Position numbers and translations under genes: made by a program. DNA of 64,000 bases, from NCBI GenBank assembly GCA_044375625.1, contig JBILMH010000001.1, positions 8,667 to 72,666 on the forward strand. The letters run 5' to 3'. The stretch is from Alphaproteobacteria bacterium (GTDB taxonomy: Bacteria; Pseudomonadota; Alphaproteobacteria; CAISOG01). This document shows, in pieces, positions 5,454 through 63,197 of this stretch. Every line of letters begins with the position of its first letter. Position 1 is the first letter of the stretch. The notes under the pieces are model-generated. The model searched no databases, was not told the DNA's origin, and saw only the letters and a program-made list of their open reading frames with translations.

Positions 5454-5996
5454 ATGACCAACAACAACACTTCAGCCAAAACAAAGGCTGCCGAAGCTCT
5501 TAGCGCGACCACCCAGGAAGCCATTCAGGGCGCCATCGCCAACGGTGTTAAAGCCGCCCAAACTTCTGGTGCCGAAGCTGCCAAAGCTGCCACCAAAATC
5601 GTCAACCTGGTTGCCCAAAACACCAGCAAGGCCAATTCAACCATGGTTGAATCCTTTGACGGTATGTCCAGCTTTATGCGTGAAAACCTGAACGCTATCA
5701 GCAAATCCAGCGCCGACCTGATTGCCGGTTGCGAAAACATTCTGAAGCAGTGCTTTAACTTTGCTCAAAGCCAGTTGGAATCCAGCCTTAGCGCTCAAAA
5801 AGACCTGGTTAACTGCAAAAACCTGCGTGATGTTTTTGAAACTCAGGCTGAATTTGCGCGCAATTCCTATGAGCAAAGCGTTAGCGAAATGACCAAAATT
5901 TCCGAAAGCTTGATCAAAATCACCAACCAGTCAGCTGAGCCAATTCAAGCGCGCATCAACGTGTCGATTGAAAAAGCGTTCAAATCTGCTGCCTAG
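5454..5996 (+). CDS. phasin-family protein (PHA granule-associated)
   Basis: ~180-aa Ala/Lys/Gln-rich helical protein with an alphaproteobacterial phasin-like layout. It has a strong RBS and a rho-independent terminator. Confidence 0.6.
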
Positions 5997-6019
5997 GCGG
6001 TTTTAACCAATCCCCGAAG

Positions 6020-6056
6020 GGGGCTGGAGGTGTTTGCCTCCGGCCCCTTTTTTTTG
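6020..6056 (+). terminator. rho-independent terminator (GGGGCTGGAGG-tgtttg-CCTCCGGCCCC + T8)
   Basis: An 11-bp GC-rich stem, a 6-nt loop and a run of 8 T, immediately after the phasin stop codon. Confidence 0.8.
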
Positions 6057-6091
6057 TACCATCGAAATCCGTAGAACTTTTCTTAAAGGTC

Positions 6092-6478
6092 ATGGTGTTG
6101 GTAAGCGTGATGCGCCCGCTGCTACCGCAATTGCAAGTCCAGCTGCAAGCCAGCCTGCCCCCCAATGCGCCTCCCCATTTGGGGCAGCAGCAGGATACCG
6201 CGACCAAGCCGCGCGAACGCCTGAAAAAACCGCCGCTGTATCGCGTGTTGCTGCTGAACGACGATTTTACCCCGATGGACTTTGTTGTTGATATTCTGGA
6301 AACTATTTTCCGCAAAAATCATGAGGAGGCTACGATCGTCATGTTGCATGTTCACAATCATGGGGTGGGGGTTTGCGGTATCTACAGCTGTGAGGTGGCG
6401 GAAAGTAAGGTGCAGCAGGTGTTGGACTATGCGCACGCCTTTGGCCATCCATTGCGCTGCACGATGGAGCGGGCATAG
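6092..6478 (+). CDS. clpS: ATP-dependent Clp protease adaptor ClpS
   Basis: Conserved core [28 protein letters not shown]…. It lies directly upstream of clpA. Confidence 0.9.
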
Positions 6479-6508
6479 GAAAAGATTTTTGCAACAGGGG
6501 GGTAACCA

Positions 6509-8869
6509 ATGTTAAGCCGTAATTTAGAAAGAACGCTGCATCGCGCGTTGGATTTTGCCACTCAACGGTACCATGAGTTTGCCACGCTGGAACATTTGTT
6601 GCTGGCGCTGACCGATGATCCAGAGGCGGTGGCGGTCATGCGTGGTTGCCATTTGGATCTGGCCAAGCTGCAACAAGATCTGAAGACCTATATCGATGGC
6701 GAACTGGCCAATTTGGTTAATCGACAAATTAAGGAATCTAAGCCAACGGCGGGCTTTCAACGGGCGGTGCAGCGTGCGGTTATCCATGTACAGTCCGCCA
6801 GCCGCAGTGAGGTGACGGGGGCAGACCTGTTGGTTGCGATGTTTTCTGAACGGGAATCGCACGCGGTGTATTTCCTGCAAAGCCAGGATGTTACCCGTTT
6901 CGATGTGGTCAACTTTTTGTCGCATGGCATCAGCAAATCTTCTGCTGGCCATCGCGATGCCGCCAGCAAGCCCGCCGATCATCAGCAGGAGGAGGGGGGT
7001 AGCCCGTCGGAGCGTCCGCATCGCCGCACCCCCAGCGCGCTGGAATCCTATACCACCAACCTGAACGAACGGGCGGCAGCGGGCAAAATTGATGTGCTGA
7101 TTGGTCGTGAAGCGGAGCTGGAACGGACAATTCATATTTTGTGCCGCCGTACCAAAAACAATCCGTTGTTTGTCGGCGATCCGGGGGTGGGCAAAACCGC
7201 CCTGGCGGAGGGATTGGCGTTGAAGATTGTGGCGGGGGATGTACCCGAAAAGCTAAAGCCCGCGGTCATTTACGCGCTGGACATGGGAGCATTGCTGGCG
7301 GGAACCCGCTATCGCGGTGATTTTGAGGAGCGGTTGAAAACCGTCATGAGTGAGCTGGCCGCCAAAGACATGGCGATTTTGTTTATTGATGAGATTCACA
7401 CCGTGATCGGGGCAGGCGCCACCAGTGGCGGCGCGATGGATGCCTCAAACATCCTGAAACCCGCGCTGGCCAAGGGTTCATTGCGCTGTATGGGATCGAC
7501 CACTTACCAAGAATTTCGCAACCATATTGAAAAGGATCGCGCCCTGGCGCGTCGGTTCCAGAAAATTGATATTCCCGAACCCAGCCCTGGCGATACGTTG
7601 GCGATCCTGCGCGGCCTTAGCGGTGCCTATGAAACCTATCACCATGTGCGTTTTGATCCGCCCGCGTTGCAGGCGGCCATCGACCTATCCACCCGCTATA
7701 TCCACGACCGCAAGCTGCCCGATAAGGCCATCGACGTGTTGGATGAGGCTGGCGCGGCGGCGCACCTGGCCAACAAAAAGGGCGCGACCAGCACGGCTAA
7801 GCGTCGCCGCCTGGTAACGGTGGCCGATGTGGAAAAGGTGGTGGCCAGAATGGCGCGGGTGCCCGCCAAACAGGTGACGCATGATGATAGAACCCAGCTG
7901 ATTCAGCTGGAACGCAACCTGAAAACCATGGTGTTCGGCCAGGATCAGGCGATTTTGGAGCTGTCGGCGGCGATAAAGCTGTCACGGGCAGGCCTGCGTG
8001 ATGGTGAAAAACCGATAGGCAGCTATCTGTTTTCGGGGCCAACCGGCGTTGGTAAGACGGAGGTGGCGCGGCAATTGTCCAAAGCCTTGGGCATTGAATT
8101 GGTGCGCTTTGATATGTCGGAATATATGGAACGCCACAGCATTGCGCGGCTGATTGGGGCGCCGCCAGGCTATGTTGGCTTTGAACAGGGGGGGCTGCTG
8201 TCGGACGCCATCGACCAACACCCGCACTGCGTGTTGTTGCTGGACGAAATCGAAAAGGCGCATCCCGACCTGTTCAATTTGTTGTTGCAGGTGATGGACT
8301 ATGGAAAATTGACCGACCACAACGGCCGCCATGTCAGCTTTCGCAACGTCATTTTGATCATGACCACCAACGCTGGCGCGGCCGACTTGGCCAAACCCGC
8401 CATTGGTTTTGCCCATAACAGCAGGGAAGGGGACGATAAGGAGGCGATCAACCGCCTGTTTACGCCAGAGTTCCGCAACCGACTGGACGCGGTGATTCCC
8501 TTTGCCGCGCTTAGCCCCGCCGCGATTGAACGCATTGTCGATAAGTTCATCATGCAGCTGGAAATGCAGTTGCAGGAGCGCAACGTCACCATTGATTTGA
8601 ATAAGGAGGCGCGCGCCTATCTGGCGACCCATGGGGTGGAGCCTGGCTTTGGCGCCCGCCCAATGGCGCGGTTGATTCAGCAGGAGATTAAACAGCCGCT
8701 GGCGGAGGAGTTGTTGTTCGGGCGGCTGGCCAAGGGCGGCATGGTGCGGGTAACGGTTAAGGATGGCCGCCTGCACTTCATCTATCCCGACCTGCCCGTG
8801 CCATCAACAGGTGGCGAGGGCGAAAAACCGCTGCGTGCCAAGCGCAAACCCACCACTGTTCCTCGTTAG
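6509..8869 (+). CDS. clpA: ATP-dependent Clp protease ATP-binding subunit ClpA
   Basis: N-terminal Clp_N repeats. Two AAA+ modules (GDPGVGKTA and GPTGVGKTE Walker A motifs). ClpA-specific length and position after clpS. Confidence 0.95.
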
Positions 8870-9047: not shown

Positions 9048-9857
9048 ATGAATAAAAGTTTTTTGAACAAAAATAATGTATTAATTGTTCCAATGGAACC
9101 TAGCAAGGAACAAATAGACTGGCTTGCTTTTAGGTGGGGTCATGTTAGAGATTATGAAGAGAATTTTGATAAACCTCTTCAAGAATTCAAAAATCTACCT
9201 CCGAATACAACGCAATTGTTTGTCATGTGTATGGCAGCGGAGGGTTGGAATGTTGAAAAAGCAATTTTTCGTCTAAATGAATTTGGCATTAATGATGCAA
9301 ATGCGATCGCGGCCGCTCAAAAAGATCTAGGTTTGTGCGATAATAATAACTTATTAGATGGAAAAGCTGTAAAAATAACAATGCCGTGTTTTATAGCGGT
9401 CGATTTAGTTGCGAATTCAAAAAAACTTTTAGAAGATGCCATCAAAAAATGCCCTGACTTTTTAAAAAAAGTGGATCTAAGATGTTCCAATATGCCAAAT
9501 ACTATTTTGCGACGTGCGGATCTTACAGAGACTGATTTCGAGGGAGCAAATCTTAAAGGTGCCGATTTACGTGAAGCAAACCTAGAAAAAGCTGTTTTGT
9601 GGAAAGCAAAAATGGTTTTTGCAAGAATAGGGCGCGGTATTGTTAATTCTAAGACGAATTTTACTGGGGTAAATCTTAGTGGTGTAACCAATTTACCATG
9701 GAATCCTGAGGTCAATCGCTTTGGTTATGTGTTTGCCAGAGGGGTTGATCGTACAACACGTCAGCAGATGTATGGCGAGGATAAACTCATAGGGGGACTG
9801 TCCAACATTTTAGAGGCGGGAAATAATGTGCTTAAGGCTTTTGGCCTTAACCGTTAG
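9048..9857 (+). CDS. pentapeptide-repeat protein (unique N-terminal domain + C-terminal pentapeptide block), AT-rich island
   Basis: The C-terminal part reads …ADLTETDFEGANLKGADLREANLEKAVL…. The gene body and its upstream region are ~35% GC, far below the flanking genes. Confidence 0.7.
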   Translation: MNKSFLNKNNVLIVPMEPSKEQIDWLAFRWGHVRDYEENFDKPLQEFKNLPPNTTQLFVMCMAAEGWNVEKAIFRLNEFGINDANAIAAAQKDLGLCDNNNLLDGKAVKITMPCFIAVDLVANSKKLLEDAIKKCPDFLKKVDLRCSNMPNTILRRADLTETDFEGANLKGADLREANLEKAVLWKAKMVFARIGRGIVNSKTNFTGVNLSGVTNLPWNPEVNRFGYVFARGVDRTTRQQMYGEDKLIGGLSNILEAGNNVLKAFGLNR

Positions 9858-17758: not shown

Positions 17759-19039
17759 ATGGCCATGACCAATCAATTGACAGATATCGAAAAAAAAATC
17801 CTGGAACACGAAGCGTGGGTTGATGGAGAGGAAACAGGATCTCGTTTGGTGCTTTCTGGTCGGTCCTTAGCAAGAATCCAAATGCCTAATCGCATGCTTA
17901 AGTCGGCAAAAATGATGGGTTGTGATCTGCAAGAGGGCAATTTTGCAGGAACCGATCTAAGTTTTTCAGATTTGTTTTGTTCCAATTTGGAACGCGCCAA
18001 TTTTTCCGAAGCCAATTTGATGCGTGCCAGCATGCGTGGGGTTAAAATTCGTAACGCCAATCTACGTGGAGCCAATTTAACGGAGGCCGATTTGCGGGCG
18101 GGGGCGATTGTTCGCCATGTTAATGAGGCCGCGGAAGAGGTCAGGACGGATCTGTCGTTCAGTCGGTTGGATGACGCCGTTATGCCCAATGTTAATCTAA
18201 ATGGCGCGGATTTGCGCAATGCCATCATGACAGGTGCTAACCTTAAAGGGGCTTATCTGCGCGGATGCAACTTGAGTTCCGTGGATTTGCGTAATGCGGA
18301 TTTATCCAATGTGGACTTGTCCAATGCTGATTTAAGCTTTGCCAATCTTAAGGGGTCATCCCTAAGCTATGCTGTCATCAGTCGTACCAGTTTTGACAAC
18401 GCTGTTGTTGATAATATGGATATCACGGGCACAGTCTTTGATGATAGCGCCCCGGCTGAACTGGTTGACATGCTGCAAGATAAAAGCCGCAACCAACCCC
18501 GCAAATTGGATGAGGTGTTGGCCAACCATGTGCAATGGATTGATTCACAGGGTGCCAAGGGGCAGCGGGCGATATTGGTCAAACGGGATCTTAGTAGTTT
18601 TGATTTGAATCATGTCAATCTTAGTGGGGCTGATTTACAAGAAGTTTTACTAATTGAGGCCAATTTGTTCCGTGCACTTTTGGTCATGACGAATCTTAGT
18701 GCCGCCAACTTGCGGGATGCCAATCTGTCCAAAGCCAATTTGGCTGGTGCCAATTTAACAGGTGCTGACCTTAGCCATGCCGATCTTAGAGATGCTGTTC
18801 TTAAGGCTATCATTTCGCGTGCCAGTAGTGCGCTCCCAGGTTCCAAATTGTGGCCAACCAACCTTAGCAATGCCAGGTTGGTGAACAGCAATCTTAATGG
18901 CGTGAATTTGACGGGGGCAAACCTGGCTGGTGCTGACCTTCGGGGAGCCAGCCTGCGTCGCGCCGTGCTTATAGGTGCCAATCTGACGGGGGCTAATATC
19001 GATAAAGCCGACTTCACCGATGCCATTTTGAAACAATAG
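17759..19039 (+). CDS. pentapeptide-repeat protein (426 aa), paralog of 53353..54723
   Basis: Long runs of A(D/N)LxxANLxGADLxxA…, with a central non-repeat linker (HVQWIDSQGAKGQRA). GC is lower than the flanks. Confidence 0.8.
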   Translation: MAMTNQLTDIEKKILEHEAWVDGEETGSRLVLSGRSLARIQMPNRMLKSAKMMGCDLQEGNFAGTDLSFSDLFCSNLERANFSEANLMRASMRGVKIRNANLRGANLTEADLRAGAIVRHVNEAAEEVRTDLSFSRLDDAVMPNVNLNGADLRNAIMTGANLKGAYLRGCNLSSVDLRNADLSNVDLSNADLSFANLKGSSLSYAVISRTSFDNAVVDNMDITGTVFDDSAPAELVDMLQDKSRNQPRKLDEVLANHVQWIDSQGAKGQRAILVKRDLSSFDLNHVNLSGADLQEVLLIEANLFRALLVMTNLSAANLRDANLSKANLAGANLTGADLSHADLRDAVLKAIISRASSALPGSKLWPTNLSNARLVNSNLNGVNLTGANLAGADLRGASLRRAVLIGANLTGANIDKADFTDAILKQ

Positions 19040-20311: not shown

Positions 20312-21670
20312 ATGATTGCCAAACTTTTGATTGCCAACCGTGGGGAAATCGCCCTGCGTATCCATCGCGCCGCTAAGGAGCTGGGTATGGCAACCGTTGC
20401 CGTCCATTCCACCGCGGACGCCGATGCCATGCATGTGCGGTTGGCGGATGAAAGCGTTTGCATCGGCCCCGCCGCCAGTAAGGATAGCTACCTGAATATG
20501 CCAGCGATCCTGTCGGCGGCCGCCATCACGGGGGCGGATGCCATTCACCCTGGCATTGGCTTTTTAGCCGAAAATGCCCGCTTTGCGGAGATGGTGGAGG
20601 ATCACGGCCTGATTTTTGTGGGGCCCAGCGCGGAACATATCCTGTTGATGGGCGATAAACTGACGGCTAAAGAGGCCGCAACCAAGCTGGGCATTCCGAT
20701 TGTGCCGGGCACGCCCGAACCGGTGGAGGAGGATGCGGTGGCCTTAGCCTTTGCTGAGGAGGTTGGCTATCCCGTGCTGGTGAAGGCGGCTGGTGGCGGG
20801 GGCGGTAAGGGCATGAAGGTGGTGATGACAGCTGAGGAAATGCCAGAATCGCTGTCGATTGCCCGTCGTGAGGCGCAAACCCATTTTGGCAACCCCGCGG
20901 TTTATATCGAAAAATACTTGCCCAGCCCGCGCCATATTGAGGTGCAGATTCTGGCCGATAAATTCGGCAACGCTGTCCATTTGGGGGAACGCGATTGCAG
21001 CCTGCAACGCCGCCACCAGAAGTTGTTGGAGGAGGCGCCTTCGCCCATCCTGACCCCTGAGCAGCGGGCAGAGCTGGGCACGCAATGCGTTAACGCGGTT
21101 AAGGAGCTGGGATACTACGGCGTCGGAACCTTTGAGTTTTTGTATCAGGATGGCCAGTTTTATTTCATCGAAATGAACACCAGGTTGCAGGTGGAACATC
21201 CCGTGACCGAGATGATCACCGGCATTGATTTGGTGCGCCAACAGCTGTTGGTGGCGGCTGGTGAAAAACTGCCGTTCAAACAAAAGGATATTAAATTCAC
21301 GGGGCACGCAATGGAATGCCGTTTGAACGCCGAAAACCCAATTAGCTTTGCCCCCCGTCCTGGCAAAATTAGCGATTACCATGCCCCTGGCGGCTTTGGG
21401 GTGCGGGTCGATTCGGCGCTGTACAACGGCTATAGGGTGCCCTCCCACTACGACAGTTTGGTCGCCAAGCTGATCGTCCACGGCAATGACCGCGCCACCT
21501 GCGTCGATCGGCTAAAGCGGGCATTGGGCGAATTTGTGATTCTGGGGATTGAAACCACGCTGCCGCTGTTCCAACGGCTGTTGGAGGATCCCGACTTCCT
21601 GGCCAGCAATTTTGATGTTAAATGGTTGGAGGGCTTCGTCGCCGAACTTCAGGAGAAAAAGGCGGCTTAG
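20312..21670 (+). CDS. accC: acetyl-CoA carboxylase biotin carboxylase subunit
   Basis: ATP-grasp protein starting MIAKLLIANRGEIALRI… (canonical AccC start); ~452 aa. Confidence 0.95.
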   Translation: MIAKLLIANRGEIALRIHRAAKELGMATVAVHSTADADAMHVRLADESVCIGPAASKDSYLNMPAILSAAAITGADAIHPGIGFLAENARFAEMVEDHGLIFVGPSAEHILLMGDKLTAKEAATKLGIPIVPGTPEPVEEDAVALAFAEEVGYPVLVKAAGGGGGKGMKVVMTAEEMPESLSIARREAQTHFGNPAVYIEKYLPSPRHIEVQILADKFGNAVHLGERDCSLQRRHQKLLEEAPSPILTPEQRAELGTQCVNAVKELGYYGVGTFEFLYQDGQFYFIEMNTRLQVEHPVTEMITGIDLVRQQLLVAAGEKLPFKQKDIKFTGHAMECRLNAENPISFAPRPGKISDYHAPGGFGVRVDSALYNGYRVPSHYDSLVAKLIVHGNDRATCVDRLKRALGEFVILGIETTLPLFQRLLEDPDFLASNFDVKWLEGFVAELQEKKAA

Positions 21671-21702
21671 ATATTTGAAAAATTTTTGAAGGACGGCTGA
21701 TT

Positions 21703-22884
21703 ATGACCAGAAAAGAGCTCGAAAAGCTTTTACAGGCTGGTGAGTCTAATAAAATTGAGTTCAAAAGCAGATTCACTAAAGACAACAAATTGCCTCAGAC
21801 AATTTGCGCATTTGCTAATAATCTAGATGGTGATGGCAAACCTGGATATATCATTATTGGCATCAATAATGATAAAACATTTAGTGGATTGCGTGATACC
21901 GATCAAATACAAACGACAATTGCTGAATATCGTTCAAACGCTAACATTAATCCGTTGCCATCTATAAGTGTACAACTCATCTCATGTGACGAGGGTGATG
22001 TGCTGGTAGTAAAAGTAGAGCCTTCATCAACCCCACCTCTACGCTATGAAGGGGTGGTATGGGTTAGAACGGGATCCAGCACTAGGAGGGCAAATCCAGA
22101 AGATGAACGTCGGCTTTCAGAGAAACGAACATCTTTGACAAAAACTTTTGACGCTGAGCCATGTAGAGATGCTTCTGTTGATGATCTAGCATTGCGCTTG
22201 TTTGATGAGTATCGCGGGCACGCAGTCAATTCTAGCGTTATAGCCGAGAATCATCGAAGTACCGATGAAAAATTAGCCTCTTTAAGTTTTTTTGATTTGA
22301 AAAATCAATGTCCGACTTATGCAGGGATATTATTATTTGGCACCAATATTCGGAATTTTTTACCAGGAGCTTATGTGCAATTTCTAAAGTTTTCAGGTAG
22401 TGATATTTCGGATCAACCAGAAGACATAGATGAAATCAATGGAGATTTAAGGACGCTTGTTGACAGAGTTTATGAGAAAATTCGTTCACATAATCGTGTT
22501 TCTCTGGTCAAAGGTGAACGTTTTGTAGAGAAGAATGTTCCAGAATATCCCGAATCTTCTCTGCGAGAATTTTTGAATAATGCTATTATACATCGTGATT
22601 ATCAATCAAATACTCCAATTCGGTTTTATTGGTATGAAGATCGCATAGAAATTTCAAGTCCTGGTGGTCTTTATCCTCCTGTAACTTATGATAAAATTGA
22701 AAAAAGGACTGGCTATAGAAATCCAATTGTTGCAAATGCGATGAAAGAGCTGGGGTATGTCGAAAAATTTGGCCGTGGCATTCAGACTGCTCAAAAAGCA
22801 CTGCAGGATAATGGTAACCCAGCAGCAGAGATTGCAAGAGAAGAAGGGTTTTTTCAGGTGACAATTTATAGGCGGGAATCATGA
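21703..22884 (+). CDS. AlbA_2 (Schlafen-like divergent AAA) + HATPase_c_4 domain protein (often annotated as putative transcriptional regulator / RecG-C-like)
   Basis: N-terminus …ESNKIEFKSRF…ICAFANNLDGDGKPGYIIIGINND… (AlbA_2). C-terminus …REFLNNAIIHRDYQSN…IEISSPGGLYPP…YRNPIVANAMKELGYVEKFGRGI (HATPase_c_4). GC is ~40%. Confidence 0.7.
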   Translation: MTRKELEKLLQAGESNKIEFKSRFTKDNKLPQTICAFANNLDGDGKPGYIIIGINNDKTFSGLRDTDQIQTTIAEYRSNANINPLPSISVQLISCDEGDVLVVKVEPSSTPPLRYEGVVWVRTGSSTRRANPEDERRLSEKRTSLTKTFDAEPCRDASVDDLALRLFDEYRGHAVNSSVIAENHRSTDEKLASLSFFDLKNQCPTYAGILLFGTNIRNFLPGAYVQFLKFSGSDISDQPEDIDEINGDLRTLVDRVYEKIRSHNRVSLVKGERFVEKNVPEYPESSLREFLNNAIIHRDYQSNTPIRFYWYEDRIEISSPGGLYPPVTYDKIEKRTGYRNPIVANAMKELGYVEKFGRGIQTAQKALQDNGNPAAEIAREEGFFQVTIYRRES

Positions 22885-23918
22885 AGATTGTTGCATTTTT
22901 TAACAACAAAGGTGGGGTAGGTAAAACAACCCTTGTTTACCATTTAGCCTGGATGTTTTCGCGTAAAAAAATTAAGACACTGGCGGTTGATTTGGATCCG
23001 CAAGCTAATCTGACGGCTATGTTTCTGAAGGAGGAACAATTAGGAGAAATTTGGCCAGATGGTGAGCATCCTAAAACCATTTATGGTGCTATCCGTCCGC
23101 TTACCAAGGGAACTGGTGATGTTCTTGATAATCCGCATGTGGAAGAAATACCAGATGTTATTCTCGATATTCTACATGTGGAAGAAATAGCGGAGTCTTC
23201 TTTAGGTTTAATTCCTGGAGATCTAGGGTTATCGCTTTTTGAAGATAAATTGTCAGAATCTTGGCCTAAATGTCATAATGGAGATGAGTCAGCTTTTCGC
23301 ACCATGACGGCTTTTTACCGTATTATTGAAAAAGCTGCTAAAGGATATGATTTGGTGCTGGTTGATATAGGTCCGAATTTGGGAGCAATCAACCGATCCG
23401 CTCTTATTTCCTGCGACCACGTTGTGTTGCCCTTGGCGGCGGATTTGTATTCGTTGCAAGGACTAAAAAACTTAGGGCCAACGTTGCGAAGTTGGCGCAA
23501 GACCTGGGGGGAGTTAAAGTCTAAAGCTCCAGGTGATTTGTCATATCCTAGTGGCGATATGAAACCAGCTGGATATGTGGTGATGCAACATGGCGCCAGA
23601 AAGGATCGTCCAGTTAAGGCTTACGATCGTTGGATGGCCAAAATTCCTGAAGTCTATCGGAAGTTTATTTTGGCCGAAGAAAACCCTAACGAGACCATAA
23701 CCGTTAACGACGATCCGTATAAATTGGCTACACTTAAGCACTATCACAGCTTAATGCCATTGGCACAGCAGTCACATAAGCCAATGTTTGATTTGAAACC
23801 TGCTGATGGAGCCATTGGTTCTCATGTTGAGTCAGTACAGGGTTGTTATCGCGATTTTGAAGCTTTGGCGAAAAGATTGGCACAAGAGATCGAATTGGTA
23901 TGGCCAGATGGTGCCTAG
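22881..23918 (+). CDS. ParA/Soj-like deviant Walker-A ATPase (AAA_31/CbiA family) with ~120-aa C-terminal extension
   Basis: N-terminal MKIVAFFNNKGGVGKTTL… and DLDPQANLT. The start overlaps the upstream stop (ATGA), and the gene is in the same low-GC island. Confidence 0.7.
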   Translation: MKIVAFFNNKGGVGKTTLVYHLAWMFSRKKIKTLAVDLDPQANLTAMFLKEEQLGEIWPDGEHPKTIYGAIRPLTKGTGDVLDNPHVEEIPDVILDILHVEEIAESSLGLIPGDLGLSLFEDKLSESWPKCHNGDESAFRTMTAFYRIIEKAAKGYDLVLVDIGPNLGAINRSALISCDHVVLPLAADLYSLQGLKNLGPTLRSWRKTWGELKSKAPGDLSYPSGDMKPAGYVVMQHGARKDRPVKAYDRWMAKIPEVYRKFILAEENPNETITVNDDPYKLATLKHYHSLMPLAQQSHKPMFDLKPADGAIGSHVESVQGCYRDFEALAKRLAQEIELVWPDGA

Positions 23919-23936
23919 TATTGAGTTATAACCCCC

Positions 23937-24539
23937 ATGCCCATTTCTGACCAAAGCTTGCTGTTGCATGCCTATCGTCGTGGGTTTTTCCCAATGGCTA
24001 AGGGGCGGGAGGAGTCAGAGATTTATTGGGTTGCCCCCGATCGGCGCGGCATCATTCCGTTGGATAGCTTCCACATTCCGCACAGCCTGCGCAAATTTCT
24101 GAAGCACAGCGGCTTTCACTACAGCATCAATCAGGCGTTTGAGACGGTGTTGTTATCCTGCGCTGCGCCGCGCGCAAAACAGCCCGACAGTTGGATTAAC
24201 CCGGCGATTGCCGCCCTGTATCGGGATCTTTGGCAGCGCGGCTTTGCCCATAGTGTAGAGGTTTGGCAGGGGGCGGTGGGGGAACAGCTGGTCGGTGGGT
24301 TATACGGCGTGGCGATGGGGGCGGCGTTTTTTGGCGAAAGCATGTTTAGCCGTCAAACCAATGCCAGCAAGGCGGCGTTGGTAGAGCTGGTACGGCACCT
24401 AAACGAACGCGGATTTCGCCTGTTGGATGCCCAATTCTATACCCCCCATTTAGGGCAGTTCGGCGCGCAGGAAATTGACCAGGCCGACTATCTGGTTCTG
24501 TTGGACGACGCCTTAGCCCGTGACGCACGTTTTGTTTAG
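23937..24539 (+). CDS. aat: leucyl/phenylalanyl-tRNA--protein transferase
   Basis: …RGFFPMAKG…WVAPDRRGIIPLD…LVGGLYGVAMGAAFFGESMFSRQTNASKAALV… (Aat signatures). Confidence 0.85.
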   Translation: MPISDQSLLLHAYRRGFFPMAKGREESEIYWVAPDRRGIIPLDSFHIPHSLRKFLKHSGFHYSINQAFETVLLSCAAPRAKQPDSWINPAIAALYRDLWQRGFAHSVEVWQGAVGEQLVGGLYGVAMGAAFFGESMFSRQTNASKAALVELVRHLNERGFRLLDAQFYTPHLGQFGAQEIDQADYLVLLDDALARDARFV

Positions 24540-62525: not shown

Positions 62526-63197
62526 TTATCTTAAATTCGTATTTCTGAATTGTCCGACATTCCATTCAATTTGAGTGTTTTGTGCTGATGCAGCTTGGCG
62601 TTTTTGTGCTTTTCTTAAGCCTTCTTCATCCAAGGCATTAACATAGGTTTTTGAATCCAAAGTAGTAATAAAAGCTTGTCTAGCTGCCTCATCATTATAA
62701 ATAGCAAATTGCACATTCATTTTTCCACCTGCGAGACTAAATTGATGCAACGCAGACATCATTGTTCTGGCTGACTGTTCATCGGTAAGTTCGCCCAAAA
62801 AGCCTGTTCCCATAGCAGGTACAGCAATAGATTGAAGTTGGTGTTCTTCTGCAATTTTTAAAGCATTATAGAAACCTGTTTGAACAACTTTAAACTCATT
62901 GTTTTTTCCAGAACATACAGAGGCCACATGAATATGATATCTTGCGTTTCCGCCTCCCTCAGTTAACAGTACCGTCCCAAAATTCTGAGGCCCCGTTTCG
63001 CGCAAAAAGCGTCGATATAAATCTAGCCCATTTTTACCACCTGCTTTTTCTATTGCGCCTGCAACACCATCATCTGATGCCTTATCGTTGAAGTGTGGGA
63101 TTATATATGCATCAACAGCTAATCTTGTCATGCTCCCGTCGAATATCGTGACTACATTTTCTTCAACTTTTCCTTCGTGTCCAGAATAAAAGATCAT
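62526..63197 (-). CDS. macro-domain protein (ADP-ribose binding/processing), standalone, in AT-rich pocket
   Basis: Macro motifs: …VDAYIIPHFNDKASDDGVAGAIEKAGG…, …TVLLTEGGGNARYHIHVASV…, …IAVPAMGTGFLG…. GC is ~40%, with AT-rich flanks. Confidence 0.7.
   Translation of the reverse strand: MIFYSGHEGKVEENVVTIFDGSMTRLAVDAYIIPHFNDKASDDGVAGAIEKAGGKNGLDLYRRFLRETGPQNFGTVLLTEGGGNARYHIHVASVCSGKNNEFKVVQTGFYNALKIAEEHQLQSIAVPAMGTGFLGELTDEQSARTMMSALHQFSLAGGKMNVQFAIYNDEAARQAFITTLDSKTYVNALDEEGLRKAQKRQAASAQNTQIEWNVGQFRNTNLR

Follow-up and report, generated by a model that had tools for sequence, protein, structure and literature searches.

Why does a pair of coupled, low-GC genes, one nuclease-like and one ParA-like, lie between the core genes accC and aat of an alphaproteobacterium? 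The pair was found in a 64,000-nucleotide (nt) stretch of contig JBILMH010000001.1 (assembly GCA_044375625.1), and the window refers to this whole stretch. Gene A encodes a Schlafen (SLFN)-like protein of 393 amino acids (aa) with a C-terminal ATP-binding domain, and gene B encodes a ParA-like ATPase of 345 aa. The original prediction, made from the letters of the window, had described two such open reading frames (ORFs) sharing an ATGA. It took them for a compact acquired module of the defense or abortive-infection type or, alternatively, for a relic plasmid-partition pair. Both ORFs and the shared ATGA were confirmed, and a Pfam search agreed with both domain assignments, AlbA_2/Schlafen plus HATPase_c_4 for A and a ParA-like ATPase with the motif KGGVGKTT for B. 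The defense reading gained support from the conserved pairing of the genes, from their insertion and from their embedding in Hma and bacteriophage exclusion (BREX) operons. We consider that the A-B pair is probably a horizontally mobile two-gene anti-phage module, of the abortive-infection or 'backup' kind.

The pairing of A with B was compared across metagenomic and genomic loci, which are cited by our own L numbers. Among 80 metagenomic loci, 77 had enough upstream sequence to be informative, and A lay directly upstream of B in 76 of these. A was also immediately 5′ of B at 11 of 12 genome or assembly loci. The two genes overlapped by the same 4 nt in 63 of the 76 metagenomic pairs and at nearly every genome locus. 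The hosts belong to at least six phyla or classes, comprising Alpha-, Beta-, Gamma- and Deltaproteobacteria, Acidobacteria (Bryobacterales) and Chloroflexi (Anaerolineales). A check of gene-neighborhood conservation had been proposed along with the original prediction, and homologues that are never adjacent would have counted against it; adjacency was nearly obligate. Moreover, in one lineage the two proteins form a single chain, P0440, of 731 aa with a linker of ~12 residues. At least 15 contigs, assembled from independent samples, carry this fusion, in every case downstream of proS (L147 8001-10196, also L148-L150). The natural fusion indicates that the two proteins act together.

Three loci departed from the pattern. 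In L012 (2019-3036) B was frameshifted with no A upstream, in L047 A was cut to its first 36 residues and adjoined HmaA, and in L079 B had no A in the 1 kb upstream. These are probably decaying copies.

The neighbor census revealed recurrent NOV_C, SNF2 and DUF1156 proteins, which PADLOC identified as full-length HmaA and HmaB, and the order in L068 was HmaA-A-B-HmaB. Since the longest-ORF census under-counted such links (8 NOV_C matches), tblastn with HmaA and HmaB was used, and HmaA and/or HmaB flanked the pair at 17 of the 80 metagenomic loci. Two BREX loci were also found, with the orders PglX-A-B-BrxC/PglY (L028) and PglX-A-B-PglZ-BrxL (L104). Among 81 informative loci, 16 were Hma-flanked and 2 were BREX loci, that is, ~20% were embedded, and these counts are lower bounds, many contigs being short. 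Co-occurrence with known defense genes, which was also to be checked, was thus observed. The embedded pairs were spread over every major clade of the B tree, indicating that the association with defense operons arose or persisted many times. A and B matched no Hma core model (HmaA, HmaB, HmaC), and no Hma gene flanks the pair in the window. According to Payne et al., 62.7% of Hma systems hold embedded genes, and 7 of 9 uncharacterized Hma-embedded cassettes protected against phage, none of them Schlafen plus ParA (bioRxiv 10.1101/2024.01.29.577857).

In protein A, a linker region joins the N-terminal Schlafen/AlbA_2 nuclease domain to the GHKL ATP-binding domain at the C terminus. In the Pfam search, residues 14-131 matched SLFN_AlbA_2 (PF04326; E=1.9e-24, 86.9 bits versus a gathering cutoff of 25.3) and residues 304-388 matched HATPase_c_4 (PF13749; E=4.5e-20, 71.9 bits versus a gathering cutoff of 26). 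The same search gave no helix-turn-helix (HTH), winged HTH (wHTH) or helicase domain, HATPase_c_4 stopping at residue 388 of 393, and NCBIfam had no family for A. Relatives of A are ~394-aa proteins, 36-54% identical. Over 131 sequences, the nuclease residues E14 and E19 were conserved in 130 and 131, respectively, and the SAFAN-type motif C35-A-F-x-N39 in 130-131. D56/D57 are conserved in the family as the third acidic position. At the GHKL ATP site, E289 was present in 129 of the 131 sequences and N293 in all of them (E-x3-N). Further near-invariant residues were H297-R-D-Y, S-P-G-G-L 319-323 (including G321), Y338-R-N-P341 and G357-x-G359. The predicted fold of A (predicted local distance difference test, pLDDT, 82) showed DIP2311 (3lmm) as top match in the fold search. 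Later matches were SLFN13/5/11/14 and the SAMD9 tRNase for the N-terminal part, and histidine-kinase CA (ATP-binding) domains for the C-terminal part.

Protein B matched AAA_31 (E=6.9e-31) and CbiA in Pfam, and its relatives form a very large family of ~327-aa proteins, 55-66% identical across distant phyla. K10, G11, G12, K15, T16, D37, D39 and D162 are invariant in this family, together with family-specific C-terminal motifs, and the C-terminal half yields 859 clusters at 50% identity, which make up a family of their own. B scored far below the curated cutoff of every named ParA, RepA or MinD equivalog in NCBIfam: 60.9 versus 180 bits for ParA_partition, 71.1 versus 348 for RepA, 25.5 versus 725 for SopA, 28.3 versus 400 for PrgP and 15.4 versus 213 for MinD. 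The RepA and ParA models were the best NCBIfam matches. In the fold search (pLDDT 86), the top match was DIP2308 (3pg5), followed by Soj, ParA and McdA, and 3pg5 (361 aa) covers B residues 1-318. A discrete C-terminal extension of ~120 aa, as the original prediction had it, was not found: B aligns over its whole length with 3pg5, and its surplus length is composed of scattered internal insertions and C-terminal helices bearing family-specific motifs. A 39-bp slip duplication adds ~13 residues (HVEEIPDVILDIL-HVEEI) to B, in a low-confidence loop of the model. It is limited to the window lineage and was present neither in L001 nor in the rest of the B family.

The best fold matches of A and B come from one organism. 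DIP2308 and DIP2311 of Corynebacterium diphtheriae are uncharacterized structural-genomics targets. Their locus tags differ by three, a hint that Actinobacteria have a related locus.

The positions of the cassette and its flanks are listed in Table 1. The ATGA overlap indicates that B is translationally coupled to A. The cassette has a GC content of 0.41 and a third-codon-position GC (GC3) of 0.27, compared with 0.52 in the 5 kb upstream and 0.61 in the 5 kb downstream. The low GC had been predicted correctly, but the predicted ~62% for the flanks fits the downstream side only. Insertion between accC and aat without integrase or repeat was also borne out. The junction spacers are short, and an empty site was identified. 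In L146, the closest sampled relative of the host (AccC 86% and Aat 71% identical), accC is followed by aat with 63 bp between them and no cassette, indicating that the A-B pair is an insertion. The distant Aat relatives L143 and L144 differ in synteny and were unusable as empty sites. No flanking direct repeat, inverted terminal repeat, tRNA or integrase was found at the window cassette, of which the window holds one copy. Promoter and terminator signals in the window were within chance counts, with no terminator at either junction. An integron cassette was ruled out, with no attC-like structure and a 3′ spacer of just 18 bp, as was a group I/II intron or homing element, with no reverse transcriptase or homing endonuclease and an intergenic insertion.

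Table 1. Coordinates of the A-B cassette and its flanks in the window.
Feature	Position (nt)	Strand	Remarks
accC	20312-21670		upstream flank
Left junction	21671..21702	+	32-bp spacer past the accC stop; Shine-Dalgarno-like GAAGGA ~9 nt before the A start; without terminator
Gene A	21703..22884	+	393 aa; SLFN_AlbA_2 + HATPase_c_4; standalone 'Schlatpase', predicted effector
ATGA stop/start overlap	22881..22884	+	A stop and B start; read from sequence
Gene B	22881..23918	+	345 aa; 'long ParA-like' deviant Walker-A ATPase; predicted ATP/DNA-dependent regulator or sensor
Slip duplication inside B	23136..23189 (approximate)	+	39-bp insert bounded by 15-bp repeat CATGTGGAAGAAATA
Right junction	23919..23936	+	18-bp spacer ahead of the aat start; without terminator or repeat
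aat	23937-24539		downstream flank

The pair has been maintained after insertion. It occupies the same accC/aat site in two closer genomes, L001/L002 and L011, the latter an alphaproteobacterial metagenome-assembled genome with an AccC 99% identical. Among these copies, the ratio of nonsynonymous to synonymous substitutions (dN/dS) was 0.15-0.20 for A and 0.26-0.28 for B, versus 0.03 for accC. A and B are therefore under purifying selection, weaker than that on the core enzyme. Between the window and L001, B was more diverged (87% aa identity, dS 0.23) than A (97%, dS 0.09) or the flanks (dS 0.06-0.14), which suggests local recombination or unequal constraint within the cassette.

Other copies of the pair lie in unrelated contexts, such as between an ABC-transporter binding protein gene and YkuD and permease genes (L003), between gyrA and serC with gaps of 6 and 15 bp (L014), at the 3′ end of a FAD oxidase gene (L016) and by proS (L147). 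At 45 of 55 loci the upstream neighbor ran in the direction of the cassette (p=2e-6), and the median gap was 51 bp. No bias was seen for the downstream neighbor. This pattern suggests a promoter-less cassette that is expressed by read-through. Cassette GC was lower than flank GC in 25 of 31 loci by a mean difference of 3.8 points, the window being an extreme case. At ~10% of testable loci, long direct target duplications of variable length were found, 85-100% identical: 28 bp in L007, 60 bp in L091, 88 bp in L016, 99 bp in L034 and 119 bp in L085. In L016 (8703-8790 and 11039-11126), a remnant of the host FAD-oxidase gene is left by the duplication as an ORF of 34 aa, and the duplicated segment in L085 and L091 is the 5′ end of hmaB. 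Terminal inverted repeats were not found in 60 of 62 loci. The long duplications match the 'insertion with long target duplication' described for restriction-modification (R-M) gene complexes (PMC2853133).

How the pair might work is suggested by better known Schlafen proteins. The SLFN plus GHKL supradomain has been named 'Schlatpase', and most of its members are small standalone proteins (bioRxiv 10.64898/2026.05.29.728809). In the SLFN-prokaryotic Argonaute (SLFN-pAgo) RzAgo, ATP at the GHKL domain drives tetramerization, by which the Schlafen nuclease is assembled and tRNA is cleaved, leading to abortive infection. Defense is lost in the nuclease mutant D32A and in the ATPase mutant E314A, and mutation of D32/D72 and E314/N318 abolishes both tRNA cleavage and defense (bioRxiv 10.64898/2026.05.29.728809). 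The CRISPR-associated Schlafen Cash also cleaves tRNA, with E17/D22 as catalytic residues (PMC13462974). By its sequence, and in agreement with the fold search, A belongs to the Schlatpase proteins, having PF04326 followed by PF13749 in one chain, the acidic triad with the SAFAN motif, and the GHKL residues. Both Pfam domains occur in the same order in RzAgo, and the triad, SAFAN motif and E-x3-N of A correspond to those of RzAgo, residues being matched to RzAgo and SLFN11 by motif spacing and not by structural superposition. E17/D22 of Cash likewise correspond to the nuclease residues of A. By analogy with RzAgo and Cash, A may undergo ATP-dependent oligomerization and cleave tRNA. On the other hand, RzAgo carries an Argonaute core that serves as a guide-dependent sensor, whereas A has no such core and is instead coupled to, and in one lineage fused with, a ParA-like ATPase.

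In the mechanism that we propose, A would be the effector, a Schlafen-type, metal-dependent endoribonuclease acting most likely on tRNA, and its activity would be gated by ATP-driven oligomerization of the GHKL domain as in SLFN-pAgo. B, an ATPase of the ParA/Soj fold, would be made in fixed proportion to A through translational coupling. B may dimerize in an ATP-dependent manner, probably on non-specific DNA, and the dimer would bind A, either keeping it inactive or switching it on. The trigger would be an infection that changes the state of cellular DNA, of ATP or of a primary defense system. Without its own promoter or mobility gene, and co-directional behind a host gene (accC here), the cassette is probably transcribed by read-through.

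The anticodon nucleases PrrC and RloC, embedded in type I R-M loci, provide a precedent for such logic, as ATPase-regulated tRNA nucleases inside restriction-like operons that serve as a second line of defense. The single chain of PrrC holds both an ABC ATPase and a nuclease domain of its own. The logic of the A-B pair is analogous, but the folds are unrelated, and PrrC, cited as almost exclusively R-M-embedded, sits in R-M loci, whereas the A-B pair is mostly outside them. The guilt-by-embedding logic behind HEC-01 to HEC-09 and the PADLOC PDC candidates applies equally to A-B. Several of these candidates consist of an ATPase gene and a nuclease gene that are both needed, but their ATPases are ABC-type and their nucleases TOPRIM, NERD or PIN. 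Closer to A are the COG2865-type proteins with a Schlafen domain, a minimal kinase and a wHTH, which have been proposed as 'backup suicidal effectors' in BREX and Hma-type loci of at least 1,017 taxa (PMC12839542). This Schlafen-kinase-wHTH family (FAM_00002) is among the largest embedded families in the tables of Payne et al. (bioRxiv 10.1101/2024.01.29.577857). These effectors share with A the SLFN+GHKL core and the seat between BREX or Hma core genes, and occur in type I R-M loci as well. However, they are single genes for proteins of ~467 aa with a C-terminal wHTH (HTH_24-like), while A has no wHTH and is always with B.

Both the Schlafen-GHKL effector class and its occurrence inside BREX and Hma systems were known before. 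What is new, by the searchable literature and PADLOC v2, is the obligate ParA-like partner. PADLOC-DB v2.0.0 had no full-length model for A or B. Nothing relevant was found in the literature on ParA with Schlafen, ParA with SIR2 or ParA-like anti-phage ATPases, subscription-only papers being outside its scope, and an A-B fusion, solitary integrase-free spread or a ParA-SIR2 pairing was likewise not found in the searchable literature. No conserved partner is described in the Schlatpase paper, in which ParA goes unmentioned (bioRxiv 10.64898/2026.05.29.728809). 'ParA' has zero mentions in the BREX paper (PMC12839542), and the accessible part of the supplements of Payne et al. contains no true ParA match (bioRxiv 10.1101/2024.01.29.577857). 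The claim that no named system pairs these two families thus agrees with both the PADLOC v2 scan and the literature.

Distant relatives of B were also of interest. Relatives 28-35% identical to B share its family-specific motifs. In 6 of 6 tested prophage-like contigs of IMG/VR (L120, L123, L124, L125, L129 and L134), the long ParA-like gene was coupled to a ThsA-like SIR2 gene (SIR2_2, 282-300 aa), usually with a 4-nt overlap, and these pairs adjoin integrase or portal genes. In Salmonella NZ_CP148876 (L021 5001-6919), where the two genes are likewise translationally coupled, a methyltransferase, a ParA-like and a SIR2 gene follow in that order. PADLOC had no model for the ATPase of this pair, which looks like an undescribed sister two-gene system. 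In the P22-like phages ST160 (L022 3515-5068) and SE1, DUF3024 and long-ParA genes (Orf24/Orf23) lie between the cI-like repressor c2 and the antiterminator gp24, a position that lambdoid phages use for exclusion genes such as rexAB. On a Vibrio plasmid, a long-ParA relative has a type I R-M system and a toxin-antitoxin pair as neighbors. The arrangement resembles that of short pAgo and Thoeris, in which effectors are swappable (SIR2-APAZ or SLFN-APAZ in short pAgos), as long-ParA is found with Schlafen-GHKL or ThsA-like SIR2. Their sensors, however, are Argonaute or TIR/cyclase proteins, while the conserved partner here is a ParA-fold ATPase. A tentative and rather doubtful extension is an unrecognized family of defense systems in which sensing and switching would fall to a conserved core, the long ParA-like ATPase, and the effectors (a Schlafen-GHKL RNase, a ThsA-like SIR2 NADase, DUF3024) would be interchangeable. 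The ATP/DNA cycle of ParA, e.g., in monitoring the nucleoid or invading DNA, would trigger cell suicide, and the cassette would spread without integrase, leaving long target duplications. If this holds, it would give the ParA/MinD class of ATPases an immune role for the first time.

A methyltransferase also precedes an A-B pair on a viral contig. In L103, a D12-class N6-adenine methyltransferase gene lies immediately upstream of the pair (5712-6689), which echoes the one ahead of the Salmonella ParA-SIR2 pair.

Several observations weigh against the anti-phage interpretation. Most copies, including that in the window, are solitary in housekeeping operons rather than in defense islands, and integrases were among the nearest neighbors in 1 of 99 cases. 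In the clade of the window's A, the third acidic position is N56-D57 instead of the family's D56-D57. B is conserved more (55-66% identity) than A (36-54%), which is unusual for a sensor touching fast-evolving phage proteins, and suggests that the signal read by B is a general one, such as ATP, the state of DNA or the nucleoid, or the condition of a primary system. The PADLOC hits were partial matches to models of unrelated systems, namely the pAgo model to A residues 3-323, PDC-S50 to A residues 3-105 and PDC-M28B to the P-loop of B, which shows novelty and lends no positive support. Moreover, a gut-phage subgroup of long-ParA has only a small ORF of 80-95 aa downstream, and may be a true partition system.

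Another question is whether the pair serves itself rather than its host. As a selfish, toxin-antitoxin-like addiction cassette, A would be a toxic nuclease and B its ATP-dependent antidote, so that loss kills the cell, with no dedicated anti-phage role. The spread without a mobility gene, the insertion in essential or housekeeping operons and the long target duplications as in R-M gene complexes (PMC2853133) are in line with this, as are the tight coupling, the existing fusion and the fact that three diverged genomes have retained the pair at one site, where it is under purifying selection. However, a highly conserved 330-aa ATPase is atypical as an antitoxin, and the fused chain P0440 is hard to square with the differential stability of a toxin and its antitoxin. 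Recurrent Hma/BREX embedding and SIR2-paired relatives in prophage moron slots also point to immunity. We regard addiction alone as unlikely, although it and abortive-infection defense are not mutually exclusive. It is very unlikely that the pair mobilizes itself as a minimal transposon, with B as a TnsC/MuB-like target-selecting ATPase and A as a nuclease or strand-transfer enzyme. It is true that the element has the same limits as the two genes and carries no further mobility gene, that most insertions run in the direction of the upstream gene, and that target duplications occur at about a tenth of loci. But these duplications are long, variable and confined to a minority of loci, unlike those made by transposases; terminal inverted repeats are almost always lacking, and the window holds a single copy. 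Furthermore, the known Schlafen chemistry is RNA cleavage, and SIR2-paired relatives cannot be transposases.

The ParA fold of B brings up DNA partition or cargo positioning, relic or active, in which B would be the motor and A a DNA-binding adaptor for a plasmid, an integrative and conjugative element or cellular cargo. B has the Walker A consensus KGGxxK[ST], a genuine ParA/Soj fold with all ATPase motifs, as in partition ParA, Soj, McdA and 3pg5, and RepA and ParA as its best, far sub-threshold NCBIfam matches; some gut-phage relatives with their small downstream ORF resemble type Ib systems. It differs from partition ParA in its scores below curated cutoffs and in its own motifs. Neither a ParB/ParG-type centromere-binding partner nor parS nor a replicon needing partition was found: the partner A is a nuclease-ATPase with conserved catalytic residues and with no HTH or centromere-binding domain. 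The 32- and 18-bp spacers leave no room for a parS array, and the cassettes are single-copy chromosomal insertions between core genes. Among 72,556 plasmids no relative of B exceeded 35% identity, and among 50,697 phage records none exceeded 27%; the Vibrio plasmid with a long-ParA relative has a separate small ParA pair too. These results indicate that the cassette is not a partition module; the relic plasmid-partition pair offered as an alternative in the original prediction is not supported, and we consider a partition role most improbable. Finally, an ordinary housekeeping regulator pair is suggested by annotation, since COG2865 proteins are often annotated as transcriptional regulators or 'RecG-like helicase', and homologues of the pair carry source annotations such as 'ATP-dependent DNA helicase RecG', 'putative DNA binding domain-containing protein' and 'chromosome partitioning protein'. 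The pair is also probably co-transcribed with accBC-aat in the window. But A has no HTH or helicase domain, the pair is absent from the accC-aat site of L146 and found in unrelated contexts in other hosts, and its GC is atypical for the host, making such a role scarcely probable at all.

Other low-GC features were noticed in the window. Two pentapeptide-repeat proteins (269 and 426 aa) are encoded at 9048-9857 and 17759-19039 with a GC of ~0.45-0.50, under the window average. A macro-domain protein of 222 aa is encoded on the minus strand at 62526-63197, in a low-GC patch (0.45) near the window end, whose edge cuts its context short.

Schlafen nucleases were only recently shown to be bacterial anti-phage tRNases. 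For the control of the abundant standalone SLFN+GHKL proteins, the A-B pair offers a specific candidate regulator, and one from the ParA/MinD class, which is otherwise tied to DNA segregation and cargo positioning. The SIR2 partners of the same ATPase family in prophages suggest a broader family of a sensor with swappable effectors. If the anti-phage interpretation is right, the cassette would be a defense-type module that moves without a recombinase and settles in essential operons (accBC-aat, gyrA-serC, proS), where searches of defense islands would miss it.

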